Shown here: one piece after another, positions 33,027-37,893 of the stretch | Numbering within the stretch: the stretch's first letter is position 1 | Layout: every line of letters begins with the position of its first letter | Assembly: GCA_047639315.1 (NCBI GenBank) | Contig: JBLINQ010000008.1 | Coordinates: forward strand, 810-64,809 | Direction of reading: 5' to 3' | DNA: 64,000 nucleotides | Source of the DNA: Planctomycetota bacterium | GTDB lineage: Bacteria; Planctomycetota; GCA-002687715; DRQF01 | The notes under the pieces: generated by a model | Databases searched by the model: none | What the model saw: only the letters and a program-made list of their open reading frames with translations | Told to the model about the DNA's origin: nothing | Position numbers and translations under genes: made by a program

Positions 33027-34874
33027 TTAAAAGAAGATGAAGTTCGGGTTCGAGATGTAGTAGTTGCCGACGCCGAGTTCATCGGTGTAGTAGCTAATCA
33101 TCTGGAAGACAGCCGTGAAGCCTGCACCATCGAGGGCTTCGTTGCCACCGAAGGAGATAATGTTGTCTCCGTTTGCGGCAGTGACCAGGCTTGGCTCGTA
33201 TTCCCCAATCAACCCGGTGCTGGAGACAGCGCCAAAGTCGAATGATGGATTCAAGATACTGGTGTGGATGTTACCCCATGGTGTTGGGAACGGAACTTGT
33301 GGTGCATCATAAGCGAGAGTCAGGAACATACCTGGACGCTCAGTTTCAGTGATGAACAACAAAGTGCCATTTGCTGGCGTCCAGAAAGTACGGAGGCGGC
33401 GAGTGTAGACCGTTATCTCAGTGCTCTCAGTTGTACCGACGCGTTCAGCCTTGATGACTGTTGTGCCTGGGCTGCTGGCACCGCGAACGAGGTGACGAGC
33501 GCGACCATTGGCGTCAGTGATTGTGTTGCTGCTGCCTGGCAAGAATGCGTTACCGCTCACAACAGTCCACCGGACTGCACCGCCGATAACGGGCGAACCG
33601 AAGCCGTCAATGACTTGCACTTCGGCAAGTTGGGCGAAGTCTTCGAAAACGTTGCCACCTTGGTATGCACCAGCAATAGCGAACAAGCCGCCCTTTGGTG
33701 CCAAGTTGAATTGCAGGTCGTTTGGTGTGCCGGGCTTGAACAGGTCCATTGTCGCCGCAAAGATTGTTGAGGCCGGGAGATCACTCTCGAAGTGGAAGCT
33801 GAACAAGTTACCCCAACGAAGAGCGTTGCCCATTGGAGTTGTAGCAAAATCAGGACCGTCCCAACGGATCTTGCTGTTGATGTTGTCAACAGTTGAAACC
33901 CAGTCAGTTCCTGCGAAAGGCTCACCACTGTGATAGTCAACGTCATGGAATGAGATGTTGCTGATGTTGGCACCAGCTGGGAATTCCATTTCGAATCCGT
34001 TGGCGCAGCGATCGGAAGTGACGTTTTGGATTGAGACGTCAAAAGAGTAACCACCACCCGGTTTTGGCGCGGAGCGGAAACCAACCCAGAAACGACCTTC
34101 GCCTGGAACGTCGATCGGATTGAGGTTTACGGCTGGATCATGAAGTGGCCAAGCCTGGATAGCAGCTTCTTGGCGAACCGTGGATTCGCCAGGTGTGAAA
34201 CTCATGTTGTAGTCGGCGCCACTCTGAGCGACGTTCACTTGACGCCAGGAGACGCTGTCAGCGCCGTTACCAGCTTGTGCTTCGTCTTGGGTTACGTATT
34301 GACCTTCGACGAAGTAGAGAGCACCAGCGTTTTGTGCTGGATCGAGATCAGATGTGTGAACTTGAAGGCGCTTGAAAGTGCTGTTGCCTGTCGTTCCCTG
34401 ACCAAAGTAAGGGTAAGGGTAAACACCATCGAAGGCGTTCACTTGGAATTTTGGGCCGAGTCCACCTTGGGAGCCGTTAAGTCCTGAGCCATATGGATCA
34501 GAGCATCCTATGCCAAGGTAAGTTCCGTCAGATGAGACTGGGCAACCATCGCAGAGCGTGCCGCTCAATGCGAAGAAGCCATGCTTCAACCATGATTGAC
34601 CAATTTGCTCAAAGCGCCCGTCCTTGAGACGGAACGCATGCTGGCCAATGACCGGATGCAAATTGTTGTTCTGTTGCCAACTCAAGTTGGCGTCGCCGAT
34701 ATTGCACGATGTCGTTCCGACGGAGAAGGCGTCGATGCCTGCTCCCGCGTCGACGGAATAATTCGAGACACCATTGAGGTCGCCGACAATCACGTTCGGA
34801 CTTTGGGCGTTCAGGCCTGCGGCGAGCAGACCCATCAATGTGCAGCACATCACTGCAACGGAAGCTAACTTCAT
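33027..34874 (-). CDS. Secreted uncharacterised protein ('GTTSCNIG...EQIGQSWLKHGF' family) with an Ig-like (Big_1-like) C-terminal region
   Basis: Signal peptide, Cys-containing conserved N-terminal domain, later 'VQVIDGFGSPV.G..VRWTV......TDANGRA' Ig-like motif; 615 aa. Confidence 0.6.
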   Translation of the reverse strand: MKLASVAVMCCTLMGLLAAGLNAQSPNVIVGDLNGVSNYSVDAGAGIDAFSVGTTSCNIGDANLSWQQNNNLHPVIGQHAFRLKDGRFEQIGQSWLKHGFFALSGTLCDGCPVSSDGTYLGIGCSDPYGSGLNGSQGGLGPKFQVNAFDGVYPYPYFGQGTTGNSTFKRLQVHTSDLDPAQNAGALYFVEGQYVTQDEAQAGNGADSVSWRQVNVAQSGADYNMSFTPGESTVRQEAAIQAWPLHDPAVNLNPIDVPGEGRFWVGFRSAPKPGGGYSFDVSIQNVTSDRCANGFEMEFPAGANISNISFHDVDYHSGEPFAGTDWVSTVDNINSKIRWDGPDFATTPMGNALRWGNLFSFHFESDLPASTIFAATMDLFKPGTPNDLQFNLAPKGGLFAIAGAYQGGNVFEDFAQLAEVQVIDGFGSPVIGGAVRWTVVSGNAFLPGSSNTITDANGRARHLVRGASSPGTTVIKAERVGTTESTEITVYTRRLRTFWTPANGTLLFITETERPGMFLTLAYDAPQVPFPTPWGNIHTSILNPSFDFGAVSSTGLIGEYEPSLVTAANGDNIISFGGNEALDGAGFTAVFQMISYYTDELGVGNYYISNPNFIFF

Positions 34875-35103: not shown

Positions 35104-35946
35104 CTACTGAATCGATGCGAACAGCCCGATTCCCGTCCAGATCCGAAACCAATTGCCGATTGATGCGACAAGTTGATCAAAGTCAACTTCCGGGAGATTG
35201 GCGGCGGCTTCGATGGCGTCGAGGAGAGTCCCGCCTTGCTCCAATGTCTCGAGGATGACGAATTGCGATTCCGACAACGTTGTTCGCCAAACGGTGTAGT
35301 CACGGCGGTAGAGGAGTAGCCAGCTATCTCGCTCAGCTGGGACTTCTAAGTGTCGGTCTTCTTTGCGGGCTTCGATGAATTCGTCTACCGGAAACTGCAA
35401 GGCAAGGCGTCGATGAGCCGGGATCAGAGACAAACGCAGAGCACCCCAAGCTTCTGGCGTAATGTTCAAGATATCGTCGGCGGGAACGCTTGTGACATTC
35501 TTCTCGTCGAAACACACATTGGTCGCACGTTCGACGCTTGCCACATCGACAAGGAAACCGCGGTGATCGATCGTCTCGTTTGTTTCTGCGAGAAAAGCTG
35601 AGAAGTGTGAGCCCAAGTGCGCAAGGTTCGGAGACGAAGATGGATAGTGGTGGAGATAGCTTTTCGCAATCTCATGAAATCTCTCATGGCCAAGCGTGAA
35701 CTGCACCACGGGAAAGTCTTCGGCAAGCGACTCCACGAGTCGCCAGTAGTACATGTCGGAGTAAACACGCAAACGGTCCATCGCCGAAAGTTGAGGGCCC
35801 GCCGTGGCAATCTCTTCAACTGAGTCGGTTGGCCAAATTTGATGGGCCTCGTTGCTCGTAATGCCAGCTTCAATGCCTTCTGGATGCGAGACAACTTGCA
35901 GCATCCAGCGTTCGAAACGGTCGAGGCTCTCGGCTTCATGGTTCAT
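35104..35946 (-). CDS. DUF2063-type MNIO partner protein (BufC/HvfC-like)
   Basis: RLRVYSDMYYWRLVESLAEDFPVV...F..Y...YPSSS.NL..LG..F..FL motif; ATG overlaps the MNIO TGA. Confidence 0.85.
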   Translation of the reverse strand: MNHEAESLDRFERWMLQVVSHPEGIEAGITSNEAHQIWPTDSVEEIATAGPQLSAMDRLRVYSDMYYWRLVESLAEDFPVVQFTLGHERFHEIAKSYLHHYPSSSPNLAHLGSHFSAFLAETNETIDHRGFLVDVASVERATNVCFDEKNVTSVPADDILNITPEAWGALRLSLIPAHRRLALQFPVDEFIEARKEDRHLEVPAERDSWLLLYRRDYTVWRTTLSESQFVILETLEQGGTLLDAIEAAANLPEVDFDQLVASIGNWFRIWTGIGLFASIQ

Positions 35947-36788
35947 CGGCGAGCCTCATCTGTGCGGAATCGTTTGGCCCGAAGAACCTCATTGTGAACT
36001 TCATCAAAAGAGGGGATCTCATCATCCCACTCCAACAGAGTGGCCCTATTGCCAGCTCGATCCATGACCCATTTATAAAGTTCCCAAACTTCGTCAATGA
36101 CGATGCCGTCATGGGTGTCAATGCAGTGCGTTCCCTTGTCTGTATGGCCAGCCAAGTGAATTTGAACGACTCGGTCCATGGGGATCTTTTCTAAGTACTG
36201 AATGGGATCAAAGCCATGGTTTCTTGAGCTGACATAGACGTTGTTGACGTCGAGCAGGAGGGCGCAGTCACTCTGCTTTGCCATCTCCGATAAGAATTCT
36301 TCTTCCGAGAGGCTGTTGGCAGTGAAGCTGACATAGGTTGAAGGATTCTCGATGACCAAGGGCCGTTCCAAGAAATCCTGAATTTGGCAGATACGCCCGA
36401 CAACCCATTTGAGGCTCTCCTCGTTCGTAGGCACTGGGTAGAGATCATGGCCATTTTTGCCCGCGACTCCGGTCCAGCAGAGATGATCGCCTAACCACTT
36501 GGCATCAACTCGAGCAGCGAGTTTCTTGAGCTTCAACATGTAGCCCCAGTCGATGGGGTCGGTGCTTCCGATCGACATGGAGACACCATGCATCACGATG
36601 GGATAGCGCTCTGCCACTTGCTCCAAGATGTGGAGAGGACGGCCCTCAGTCTCCATGTAGTTTTCGGAGATGATCTCGAACCAATCGATCTCGGGCCAGT
36701 GCTCTAAGATGTGGGGGTAATGCACGGAGCGAAGTCCGATTCCCAGGCCAAGGTCAGGCAGATTCCATTTGTTCGGAATTGTGGTCAT
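35943..36788 (-). CDS. DUF692-family multinuclear non-heme iron oxidative enzyme (MNIO; BufB/HvfB/MbnB-like)
   Basis: GIGLRSVHY, WFEIISENY, HGVSMSIG, GDHLCW, IENPSTY, LLDVNNVYV, QIHLAGH, IDTHD, LLEWD. ATG 36788. Confidence 0.95.
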   Translation of the reverse strand: MTTIPNKWNLPDLGLGIGLRSVHYPHILEHWPEIDWFEIISENYMETEGRPLHILEQVAERYPIVMHGVSMSIGSTDPIDWGYMLKLKKLAARVDAKWLGDHLCWTGVAGKNGHDLYPVPTNEESLKWVVGRICQIQDFLERPLVIENPSTYVSFTANSLSEEEFLSEMAKQSDCALLLDVNNVYVSSRNHGFDPIQYLEKIPMDRVVQIHLAGHTDKGTHCIDTHDGIVIDEVWELYKWVMDRAGNRATLLEWDDEIPSFDEVHNEVLRAKRFRTDEARR

Positions 36789-36813
36789 TGATGAGTCCGC
36801 GAGGGAAAAGACC

Positions 36814-36836
36814 TCAGTGCGCTGGGAGCGCACTGA
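36814..36836 (-). terminator. Hairpin between precursor and MNIO gene (weak terminator or mRNA stabiliser)
   Basis: TCAGTGCGCT-CCC-AGCGCACTGA (minus strand) 10-bp stem, followed by GGTCTTTT. Confidence 0.55.
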
Positions 36837-36849
36837 AATCTCAGATCGA

Positions 36850-37263
36850 TCAGTGTTTCAGTGGAACGGCGCAACCACCCTTGCCATCGCAGGAGTTTTT
36901 GCCCTTGCAACCGTTGTCGCTCGATTTGCAGCCGCCAAGGCCTTTGCAGGAGTTCTTGCCGCCACAAGAGTGAGCTTTGACTGTGGCACAGCCGCCCTTG
37001 CCCTTGCAGGTGTTCTTGCCGGCGCAGCTACCGTCGCCAGACTTGCAGCCACCATTGCCCTTGCAGGAGTTCTTGGCCTTGCAGATGTGTTTTTCTAAAC
37101 CCATCTCGTGGGCCGCTTTTGCCATGCCGTCGGTGCTTGCCTGCGTGGTAGCAGGGCTTGGGGTCTCATCTTTCTTGTCACCACAACCAACTGTAGCAGC
37201 GGCAATGATGCCACCGGTTGCTGCCAGGAGGGCTCGGTTGAAATCGCGTCTGTTCATTCCCAT
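36850..37263 (-). CDS. Cys/Gly/Lys-repeat RiPP precursor (BufA2/HvfA-like) with twin-arginine lipoprotein-type signal, 4 repeats
   Basis: MGMNRRDFN...ATVGC, then four C-x-x-K-N-x-C-x-G-x-G-G-C units (12 Cys); directly upstream of DUF692. Confidence 0.88.
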   Translation of the reverse strand: MGMNRRDFNRALLAATGGIIAAATVGCGDKKDETPSPATTQASTDGMAKAAHEMGLEKHICKAKNSCKGNGGCKSGDGSCAGKNTCKGKGGCATVKAHSCGGKNSCKGLGGCKSSDNGCKGKNSCDGKGGCAVPLKH

Positions 37264-37351
37264 GGGGATCTCCAAGAGTAGAAGGGTGAATTTCTAAATC
37301 TGGCGACTTGTGGTCAACCAGGAATAGTCCTGGCTCAGATCATAGCACAGC

Positions 37352-37393
37352 AAAAAAAGGAAGACCTCGGCCAATTGATAGCCGAGGTCTTTT
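37352..37393 (-). terminator. Intrinsic terminator between the two precursor genes
   Basis: AAGACCTCGGC / GCCGAGGTCTT 11-bp stem; on the minus strand followed by CC-TTTTTTT. Confidence 0.75.
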
Positions 37394-37405
37394 GAATGTG
37401 TCTGT

Positions 37406-37639
37406 TTATCTCGTCCTGCAGCCGCCTTTGCCTTCGCAGGAGTTTTTGCCCTTGCAGCCGTTGTCGCCGCCCTCACAGCCACCATGGCCTTTGCAAGCGT
37501 TGTGACCAGCGCACTCGTGTCCGGCATCAGCGACTGCATGTTCGCTGCCGTCCGAGGCGCAGCCCAAAGTAGAGCCGGCAACAATGCCACCAAAGGCAGC
37601 AATAATGACTTTGTTAAAATCGCGTCTCTTAAGACCCAT
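37406..37639 (-). CDS. Second Cys-repeat RiPP precursor with twin-arginine lipoprotein-type signal, 2 repeats
   Basis: GGAG RBS; MGLKRRDFNK...STLGC then CAGHNACKGHGGC and CKGKNSCEGKGGC. Confidence 0.85.
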   Translation of the reverse strand: MGLKRRDFNKVIIAAFGGIVAGSTLGCASDGSEHAVADAGHECAGHNACKGHGGCEGGDNGCKGKNSCEGKGGCRTR

Positions 37640-37726: not shown

Positions 37727-37752
37727 TTGGTGTTTACAACTATTCCGGTTCC
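37727..37752 (-). promoter_or_regulatory. Possible ECF-sigma promoter upstream of the precursor genes
   Basis: Minus strand GGAACC-N16-CCAA, one mismatch per box to the GTAACC-N16-CGAA consensus I recall for Caulobacter sigma-F. Confidence 0.25.
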
Positions 37753-37893
37753 CCGGTAAATCCAGGAAAGTCTGCAATGTGAAGGGAAATCAGTTGGCTG
37801 GAAGGAAGCACTGCCGTTCAGGGACTTTTTTTCGCCACGAATCTCGGGAGTCGTTTATTTCTCCCTATCATGTCGAGATCACAAACGAAGACT

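Follow-up and report, generated by a model that had tools for sequence, protein, structure and literature searches.

Organisation of the gene cluster

The window analysed here is a 64,000-nucleotide stretch of contig JBLINQ010000008.1 from a Planctomycetota bacterium (GenBank assembly GCA_047639315.1). According to the open reading frame (ORF) list and translation, the locus at positions 35104-37639 is composed of four genes, all on the minus strand, in the order 6-Cys precursor, 12-Cys precursor, MNIO (DUF692) and DUF2063 partner. A first-pass annotation of the same DNA had described two precursors followed by DUF692 and DUF2063 genes on one strand, with which the coordinates and the strand agree. 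Precursor 2 (BufA2-like; 37406-37639, minus strand) is 77 aa long, starts with MGLKRRDF and has six core Cys in addition to a lipobox Cys, and precursor 1 (BufA2-like; 36850-37263, minus strand) is 137 aa long, starts with MGMNRRDF and has 12 core Cys in addition to its lipobox Cys. A Shine-Dalgarno-like GGAGA is located 5-6 nt before the ATG of precursor 1, and the GGAG element is kept in three genomes. Counted from its ATG (36788), the BufB-type MNIO gene (35943-36788, minus strand) encodes 281 aa; the ORF is longest when started from a GTG at 36833. The gene of the BufC-type partner (35104-35946, minus strand) encodes 280 aa, with an N-terminal DUF2063 domain and a C-terminal region. The stop codon of the MNIO gene and the start codon of the DUF2063 gene share the sequence ATGA, in keeping with the translational coupling of the two genes suggested before.

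Two further elements were found on the minus strand in the spacers. Some 90 nt ahead of precursor 2, a block kept in three same-genus genomes (37729-37763) has the form (T/C)TTAC(C/T) - 16 nt - TGTA(A/G)A, and when the upstream regions of the window and of the genomes G001 and G002 were aligned, it was the main conserved stretch of an otherwise diverged spacer. We regard this block as a putative promoter; a sigma-70 consensus scan gave no promoter at the scan threshold. Between the two precursor genes, a hairpin with a 13-bp stem (37351-37391) begins 14 nt after the stop of precursor 2. Its arms, AAGACCTCGGCTA and TGGCCGAGGTCTT, form 13 pairs, 7 of which are GC, and are followed by CCTTTTTTTG. 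The predicted folding energy was -28.2 kcal/mol (z = -4.5), with none of 200 shuffled sequences being as stable, and both same-genus genomes have a hairpin at the same place with a different sequence. The element is strongly terminator-like and is predicted to serve as an intrinsic terminator or attenuator between the precursor genes.

A scan of the neighbouring genes showed that the cluster contains no gene for DoxX, sigma/anti-sigma factors or a dedicated protease, in agreement with the earlier remark that DoxX, ECF sigma/anti-sigma and protease genes are absent from it, and no copper or metal genes adjoined it. DoxX matches were present in the genome on contigs C47 and C34 only, not on the contig of the cluster. 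The cluster is flanked by the gene of Lon on its upstream side and by that of a 615-aa secreted protein on its downstream side. The latter was rejected as a cluster member, being syntenic only within the family and missing in genome G005 and in other families. Plus-strand ORFs such as 36769-37098 and 36977-37297 overlap the precursor genes; going by this position opposite conserved genes, we took them to be by-products that the repetitive Cys/Gly/Lys coding sequence leaves on the antisense strand.

The order of precursor, MNIO and DUF2063 genes was found again in 22 of 61 related genomes, and most of the 80 loci retained from a species-genome scan had matches to BufB and BufC immediately after the precursor. 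Across families the cluster alone is kept, while the flanking genes are kept only within the family. The recurrence of the order in relatives and in species-genome loci indicates that the arrangement is not due to chance.

The modification enzymes

The MNIO matched Pfam PF05114 over its full length with 348.7 bits, and its score of 351.6 bits against the NCBIfam model MNIO_BufB (NF050167) passed the cut-off of 310. Its scores against the NCBIfam models for ApyH, ChrH and MbnB were under their cut-offs. Nine residues of the protein (H67, H102, E147, D180, N183, H211, D224, H226, and E253) do not vary among 29 BufB-type sequences, and, going by MbnB numbering and spacing, we take them to be the equivalents of the MbnB metal ligands. 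The MNIO contains the motif EWDD, in which Asp256, after the catalytic Asp, occupies the site equivalent to BufB2-Asp251. At the equivalent site, the BufB2 proteins of Legionella, Pseudomonas, and Asticcacaulis have ERDD, whereas BufB1 has Ala or Gly and 3BWW, an HvfB-like DUF692 protein that is the closest solved structure to the MNIO, has Phe. An Asp at the BufB2-Asp251 site marks Cys-Lys enzymes and a Phe marks Lys-Cys enzymes (PMC13097082). In overall identity, the MNIO reached 50-51% with the BufB2-type proteins of Legionella, Asticcacaulis, Pseudomonas, and Thiothrix, compared to 37-38% with BufB1.

The partner protein matched PF09836 with 65.6 bits (cut-off 27.2). Its best NCBIfam match was HvfC (NF050145), with 59.5 bits over residues 52-267, which is under the cut-off of 142, and a PDB sequence search detected no solved homologue. 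In relatives, too, the DUF2063 gene lies directly 3ʹ of the MNIO gene.

The two precursors

In precursor 2, an RRDFNK motif and a Gly/Ala-rich h-region are followed by the lipobox TLGC and a single 6-Cys unit, HECAGHNACKGHGGCEGGDNGCKGKNSCEGKGGC. Precursor 1 carries an RRDFNR motif and the lipobox TVGC, then a spacer of some 33 residues and a tandem pair of 6-Cys units. Against the BufA2 model NF050166, precursor 2 scored 34.1 bits (E 2.3e-8) and precursor 1 scored 42.3 bits over two stretches (E 6.6e-11), both under the cut-off of 60 bits. On the same model, planctomycete 12-Cys and 18-Cys relatives of the CKGxGGC type passed the cut-off with 71.0 and 82.7 bits, and the bona fide BufA2 proteins that we aligned with the precursor units scored 80.5 and 100.1 bits. 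The reference BufA2 and BufB2 sequences came from Legionella and Asticcacaulis plasmids. In the alignment with the BufA2 proteins of these two genera, Cys I-V of the precursor units were in register, and C8, N12, C14, K15, G16, C20, C27, G29, N31, C33, G35, and G37 were invariant. Cys VI was displaced, lying 6 residues after Cys V in the precursors compared to about 12 in BufA2. In both precursors Cys VI sits in a GGC motif, so that each unit reads as an internal repeat of N-x-C-K-G-x-G-G-C. Taking together the scores under the cut-off, the alignment of Cys I-V and the planctomycete CKGxGGC relatives that pass the model, we consider that the precursors are probably homologous to BufA2 and are borderline cases for the curated model. 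DUF2282 (PF10048) gave no match in them at E <= 0.1.

Homologues of precursor 1 numbered 5042 at E <= 0.001, relatives of this 12-Cys precursor are encoded in more than 570 species genomes, and its 12 Cys are invariant or nearly so among 91 relatives. For precursor 2, a word-index search returned four homologous proteins, none of them named, and the same-genus orthologues begin with M[GS]LKRRDFNK. The AlphaFold2 model of precursor 1, built on the 91-sequence alignment, was unusable (pLDDT 48.9, pTM 0.19).

Comparison with known MNIO systems

The locus is very probably a Buf2-type bufferin (Cys-Lys captophorin) cluster, which can be written as bufA2(short) - terminator - bufA2(long) - bufB - bufC. 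Like bufferin 2 of Caulobacter vibrioides (bufA2-bufB2-bufC2; BUF_6/12Cys; NF050166/NF050167), it has the order precursor, MNIO, DUF2063, has neither a DoxX nor a sigma/anti-sigma gene, and encodes an exported precursor of CxGxNxCKG-type 6-Cys units; with the bufferin 2 family it further shares an MNIO that fits the BufB model and has the Cys-Lys Asp. The first-pass annotation had called the cluster a minimal variant for want of DoxX-like (BufD), sigma/anti-sigma and protease genes. This description had to be dropped, because the founding Caulobacter buf2ABC operon is likewise without bufD (PMC11626156) and Buf2 BGCs have been found to lack sigma and NrsF genes (PMC12452194). Tandem precursors, duplicated 12-Cys forms and lipoprotein signals (about 16%) have already been described for Buf2 as well (PMC12452194). 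The locus differs from bufferin 2 in having a twin-arginine motif with a lipobox where BufA2 has a Sec/SPI signal, in the position of Cys VI, in precursor scores below the BufA2 cut-off, in having two different precursors with a terminator-like hairpin between them, and in its planctomycete host, where no copper genes lie near the cluster. On the whole, the cluster is an ordinary member of the known bufferin 2 class, and its single unusual point is the combined twin-arginine and lipoprotein signal on both precursors.

With bufferin 1 (BufA1/DUF2282 - BufB1 - BufC1 - BufD1 DoxX, SigF/NrsF), the locus has in common the enzyme pair, the presumed 5-thiooxazole chemistry and a product that is, here presumably, an exported metallophore, but it has no DUF2282 match and no linked DoxX gene, and its MNIO shows the lower of the two identity ranges given above. 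Lipidated MNIO RiPPs of the DybA/ChrH subfamily resemble it in the lipobox on the precursor and in turning a modified peptide into a lipoprotein, whereas their MNIO clade (ChrH/DybH) and their chemistry (macrocycle/hydantoin) differ (PMC13056109). The paper on these RiPPs points to lipoboxes in some bufferins and oxazolins, and the twin-arginine motif goes unmentioned in it (PMC13056109).

The cluster had been proposed to be a MNIO RiPP cluster of the bufferin/oxazolin type, of which the bufferin kind and the two Cys-rich exported precursors are retained and the oxazolin type is not. Oxazolin, fontiphorin, and gonophorin systems (HvfABC, FonABC) also combine an MNIO with a DUF2063 partner of PME type 1 and Cys-rich precursors with signal peptides, and a system of this HvfABC type, with Lys-Cys EGKCG repeats, would fit the strong match of the MNIO to HvfB (248.4 bits), the HvfC match of the partner and the closeness of 3BWW, whose Phe is the residue assigned to Lys-Cys MNIOs (PMC13097082). 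However, the HvfB score is under the cut-off of 360 while the BufB cut-off is passed, EGKCG repeats are absent from the precursors, which have CKG (Cys-Lys) motifs instead, and the specificity position of the MNIO is Asp, not Phe. For these reasons we assign the locus to Buf2 and consider an oxazolin-type system extremely improbable. In addition, the oxazolin structure has been revised and the product of these systems is now also assigned 5-thiooxazoles (PMC13097082), which removes the chemical distinction between oxazolin and bufferin. The precursors might also be metallothionein-like lipoproteins working with unmodified thiols or disulfides, the MNIO pair modifying few or no Cys or acting on another substrate. 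Modification at this locus is deduced from kinship, Cys VI is not where characterised BufA2 proteins have it, and bufferin precursor genes can also stand alone, with no MNIO gene (PMC12452194), all of which would suit such proteins; yet the precursor-MNIO-DUF2063 order is kept across phyla, the sole MNIO of the genome is encoded directly after the precursors, and this enzyme keeps both its ligand set and the specificity Asp, which makes unmodified precursors very unlikely in our view.

The export signal

Both precursors carry [KN]RRDFN[KR], a Gly/Ala-rich h-region and a lipobox. This signal reads as Tat/SPII-type, unlike the Sec signal expected of Buf2. RRxF motifs were present in 34 of 91 close homologues, and RR-x-F-x-[KR] recurs in Planctomycetota, Acidobacteriota, and Gammaproteobacteria loci of the precursor subfamily. 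TatC is encoded in the genome (229 bits, contig C10), and molybdoenzyme-like proteins of the same genome carry RRxFL[KR] and a lipobox-like Cys. We give an even chance to the view that a large, multi-phylum branch of Buf2 is exported via Tat after cytoplasmic maturation, not via Sec, with a lipid-anchored product in Planctomycetota. The candidate Tat branch takes in the present planctomycete pair, many Acidobacteriota, and the gammaproteobacterial Steroidobacteraceae and Woeseiaceae.

The RR motif may also be read as something other than a Tat signal, with the precursors being ordinary Sec/SPII lipoproteins and RRDF being a leader feature recognised by BufC or a basic n-region. This would accord with the published surveys consulted, all of which call Buf2-type signals Sec, with the experimental demonstration that BufA1 is exported via a Sec-type signal peptide (PMC11626156) and with the share of Buf2 already published as lipoproteins. 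Generic Tat-signal HMMs gave no significant match on the precursor N-termini (PF10518, E 9.2; TIGR01409, no match), the motif has Asn at +5 where the Tat consensus has Leu, and many family members have a KK-type n-region with the same core. Set against this are the retention of RR-x-F-x-[KR] across three phyla in the subfamily, the Gly/Ala-rich h-regions of the RR-type members, which are less hydrophobic than those of non-RR relatives (2.05 versus 2.22, p = 7e-5, a statistic that ignores relatedness), and the very similar molybdoenzyme-like signals found together with TatC in the same genome. Moreover, the signal peptide of BufA1 is dispensable for modification (PMC11626156), which argues against RRDF as a leader feature. 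We consider a Sec route an appreciable but somewhat doubtful possibility.

Proposed maturation and function

For a Buf2-type cluster, the iron-dependent MNIO BufB and the DUF2063/RRE-type BufC would oxidise the CKG-motif Cys of both precursors in the cytoplasm, turning Cys into 5-thiooxazole with the loss of 4 Da per Cys, by analogy with Buf2, for which work in Caulobacter has established the chemistry and the copper role (PMC11626156). In that system, the loss of 4 Da is confined to the four middle Cys, and Cys I and Cys VI are left unmodified (PMC11626156). The figure of up to 18 modifiable Cys proposed before is correct as a count of core Cys and is an upper bound: because Buf2 leaves Cys I and VI unmodified, four Cys per 6-Cys unit, the central ones, would become 5-thiooxazoles, which amounts to 4 in the short and 8 in the long precursor, or about 12 of the 18, with the outer pair remaining thiols or forming a disulfide. 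With Cys VI displaced in both precursors, the Cys I-Cys VI disulfide and the number of modified Cys may not transfer.

The modified proteins would then be exported, probably via Tat, as the RRDFN[KR] motif suggests. After lipidation at the lipobox Cys, they would be tethered to a membrane facing the periplasm, where they may bind copper or another soft metal. The hairpin after the short precursor gene may end a separate transcript or attenuate read-through, and in that case more of the short precursor would be produced than of the long one and of the enzymes. We keep, of the proposal of a planctomycete metallophore RiPP, the MNIO/DUF2063 RiPP cluster in a planctomycete as found, and its role with metal as presumed.

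Biological significance

The cluster extends the Buf2 class into Planctomycetota with a clear pair of 6-Cys and 12-Cys substrates and one enzyme pair; as a single further cluster of a known class, it contributes little. The details first brought out here are RRDFN[KR] together with a lipobox, the hairpin at a conserved position, and the more than 570 species genomes with 12-Cys relatives. The CKGxGGC sub-type with a displaced Cys VI is also documented, and it probes the reach of the rule that Cys I and VI form a disulfide and Cys II-V are modified.

With this locus, there is further evidence for twin-arginine signals on many Buf2-type precursors. Should Tat export be confirmed, the published assignment of Buf2-type RiPPs to Sec would have to be corrected, and the question would arise whether these RiPPs cross the membrane folded or metal-loaded. 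The Buf2 branch would then be the first class of RiPPs to take the Tat route, and its thiooxazole-bearing domain would leave the cytoplasm folded, possibly with its metal already loaded.

Organization of the cluster and its MNIO enzyme

The cluster consists of four genes in one orientation on the minus strand of 35104-37639. Precursor 2 (37406-37639, minus strand, 77 aa) reads MGLKRRDFNKVIIAAFGGIVAGSTLGC... and then carries one 6-Cys unit, while in precursor 1 (36850-37263, minus strand, 137 aa) MGMNRRDFNRALLAATGGIIAAATVGC... precedes a spacer and a pair of 6-Cys units. Third comes the sole MNIO gene of the 5.2-Mb assembly (minus strand, 35943-36788 counted from its ATG), which matched Pfam MbnB_TglH_ChrH/DUF692 over its full length (348.7 bits). 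An ATGA overlap joins it to the fourth gene (35104-35946, minus strand), which gave a DUF2063 match of 65.6 bits and had no solved homologue detectable by sequence. When the minus strand was re-read, the coordinates, gene order, MNIO/DUF2063 coupling, and 18 core Cys of the first-pass annotation all proved correct, and the bufferin-type MNIO cluster that it recognized is real.

Against the NCBIfam models, the window MNIO scored 351.6 with the BufB equivalog (cut-off 310) and 248.4 with HvfB (cut-off 360), and it fell under each cut-off of the ApyH, ChrH, and MbnB models. Aligning 29 BufB-type sequences showed H67, H102, E147, D180, N183, H211, D224, H226, and E253 to be invariant, with a spacing that agrees with the MNIO ligand set of MbnB. 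Sequence identity of the enzyme was 50-51% to BufB2-type enzymes (Legionella, Asticcacaulis, Pseudomonas mandelii, Thiothrix) and 37-38% to BufB1 enzymes linked to DUF2282. A quick maximum-likelihood tree placed the planctomycete MNIOs in a single clade (SH-aLRT 97), closer to proteobacterial BufB2 sequences than to the BufB1 pair. Beside the catalytic Asp, Cys-Lys (BufA2-type) MNIOs have Asp and Lys-Cys (EGKCG) enzymes have Phe (PMC13097082). This specificity site is E-W-D-D in the window MNIO and E-R-D-D in the BufB2-type enzymes of Legionella, Pseudomonas, and Asticcacaulis; Ala or Gly is found in BufB1-type enzymes, and Phe in the HvfB-like structure 3BWW.

Comparison with known Buf2 systems

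The Caulobacter buf2 operon, bufA2B2C2 without bufD/DoxX (PMC11626156), shares with the window cluster the precursor-MNIO-DUF2063 arrangement lacking DoxX. A 2025 survey found Buf2 clusters without sigma and NrsF genes, precursor genes in tandem, 12 Cys as duplicated domains in 10% of Buf2 precursors, and lipoprotein signals on about 16% of them (PMC12452194). Thus, what had been read as a minimal variant is the canonical Buf2 architecture. Within the Buf2/Cys-Lys class, the window cluster is an ordinary case. The Caulobacter Buf2 product shows a mass change of -18 Da, with the four central Cys each losing 4 Da, and Cys I and Cys VI unmodified and probably disulfide-paired (PMC11626156). Therefore, the 18 modifiable Cys proposed earlier hold as an upper bound and not as the expected number, which by Buf2 analogy would be about 12 across both precursors. 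A 2026 paper revised the oxazolin structure to a 5-thiooxazole and brought all of these systems together under the name captophorins, counting more than 20,000 RefSeq clusters (PMC13097082). By analogy with Buf2, 5-thiooxazole chemistry would be expected here.

On the Asticcacaulis excentricus plasmid pASEM-1 (L034), a buf1 cluster (DUF2282-DUF692-DUF2063-DoxX) lies back to back with a buf2-like cluster, after which come a sigma-70 and two NrsF genes. These regulators fit poorly with the statement that Buf2 clusters have none, yet they may serve both clusters.

The precursors belong to a common BufA2-like sub-type

Precursors 1 and 2 scored 42.3 bits (E 6.6e-11, in two stretches) and 34.1 bits (E 2.3e-8) on the BufA2 model, respectively, under its cut-off of 60 bits. 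As calibration, precursors adjoining the Legionella and Asticcacaulis BufB2 genes gave 80.5 and 100.1 bits, and planctomycete 12-Cys and 18-Cys CKGxGGC-type proteins with Sec-type signals gave 71.0 and 82.7 bits. When the three window units were aligned with two reference BufA2 cores, Cys I-V stayed in register, as did the N, KG, and G positions, but Cys VI lay in a GGC motif 6 residues past Cys V, compared with about 12 residues in the references. The shared register, the displaced Cys VI, and the sub-cut-off scores together mark the window proteins as BufA2 homologues that belong to a separate sub-type, lying at the margin of the curated model. The AlphaFold model of precursor 1 was unusable.

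This CKGxGGC sub-type is very common. Precursor 1 had 5042 homologous proteins at E <= 0.001, a relative occurs in at least 570 species-representative genomes (mainly Planctomycetota, Acidobacteriota, and Gammaproteobacteria MAGs), and all 12 Cys were invariant or nearly so in 91 relatives. BufB and BufC homologues lay directly downstream of the precursor in the majority of the 80 loci retained.

Upstream of other planctomycete BufB-type MNIOs (loci L004, L024, L003, L018, L002, L019, and L013/L015), we observed very diverse Cys-repeat lipoprotein precursors, with (CSGKDG)n, (GGKDGSC)n, (GGKCK)n, and (CTGKAS)n repeats or CNGxNGC pairs; in the case of CNGxNGC, a DoxX gene lies downstream. On the BufA2 model, most of these precursors had little or no score, and they may be undescribed substrate families. 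At L014/L043 (genome G025), the precursor upstream of the MNIO has an RR motif and lipobox, about 10 irregularly arranged Cys (CRGLNDCKGADHDCAGQSAC...), and a charged 40-residue C-terminal tail, and scored 28.9 bits on BufA2. A Gammaproteobacteria MAG locus (L083, 2959-3735) has tandem 12-Cys and 6-Cys precursors before BufB, in the opposite order to the window (12-Cys first), both with an MNRRDFG[KR] signal and no lipobox; dual-size substrate pairs thus arose in more than one phylum.

Putative transcription signals and neighborhood

A terminator-like hairpin (13-bp stem, -28.2 kcal/mol, z = -4.5), followed by CCTTTTTTTG, begins 14 nt past the precursor 2 stop codon. Hairpins of different sequence occupy the same place in the two same-genus genomes, and this positional conservation supports a genuine terminator or attenuator, which would uncouple the short precursor from the remaining cluster genes. 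Also conserved are a promoter-like block, situated about 90 nt ahead of precursor 2, and a GGAG element that precedes precursor 1.

Upstream of the cluster is a Lon protease, and downstream are a 615-aa secreted protein (33027-34874, minus strand; weak Big_1 match of 30.9 bits, below cut-off) and genes for a response regulator and the peptidase DPP-IV. Genomes of the bacterial family keep Lon, the cluster, the 615-aa gene, and DPP-IV in this order, with one genus lacking the 615-aa gene. In families beyond it, only the cluster genes were shared, which argues that the functional unit is precursor(s)-bufB-bufC. DoxX genes of this genome were found solely on contigs other than that of the cluster, and in only a few relatives did DoxX lie beside the MNIO, with precursors of a different kind. 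Since the flanking genes examined included no metal-resistance gene, it is homology that suggests a copper role for the product.

A probable twin-arginine lipoprotein signal on both precursors

In both precursors, a [KN]RRDFN[KR] motif is followed by an h-region rich in Gly/Ala and by a lipobox, and Tat-dependent lipoprotein export is their putative route. The RR motif was kept in every same-family genome and some other planctomycete families, and was present in 34 of 91 close homologues; it also turned up, with no accompanying lipobox, in the majority of Gammaproteobacteria loci and in about 40% of those from Acidobacteriota. Within this precursor family, the h-regions of RR-type signals were slightly less hydrophobic than those of non-RR signals (2.05 vs 2.22, p = 7e-5, a statistic that ignores phylogeny), and generic Tat HMMs gave no significant match to the precursor signals. 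The genome encodes TatC and carries RRxFL[KR] signals on molybdoenzyme-like and 2Fe-2S-type proteins. Two of these, large molybdopterin-oxidoreductase-like proteins on contigs C68 and C166, outside the window, also have a lipobox-like Cys (VLAGC, FLGGC), so this organism seems to use Tat-type lipoprotein signals regularly. Tat was not mentioned in the bufferin, MNIO, and lipo-RiPP literature examined, and the term twin-arginine was absent from the papers listed by a full-text search that combined it with RiPP precursors. The probable Tat-plus-lipoprotein export signal is the sole feature of the window cluster unreported in that literature, and one that many relatives have too.
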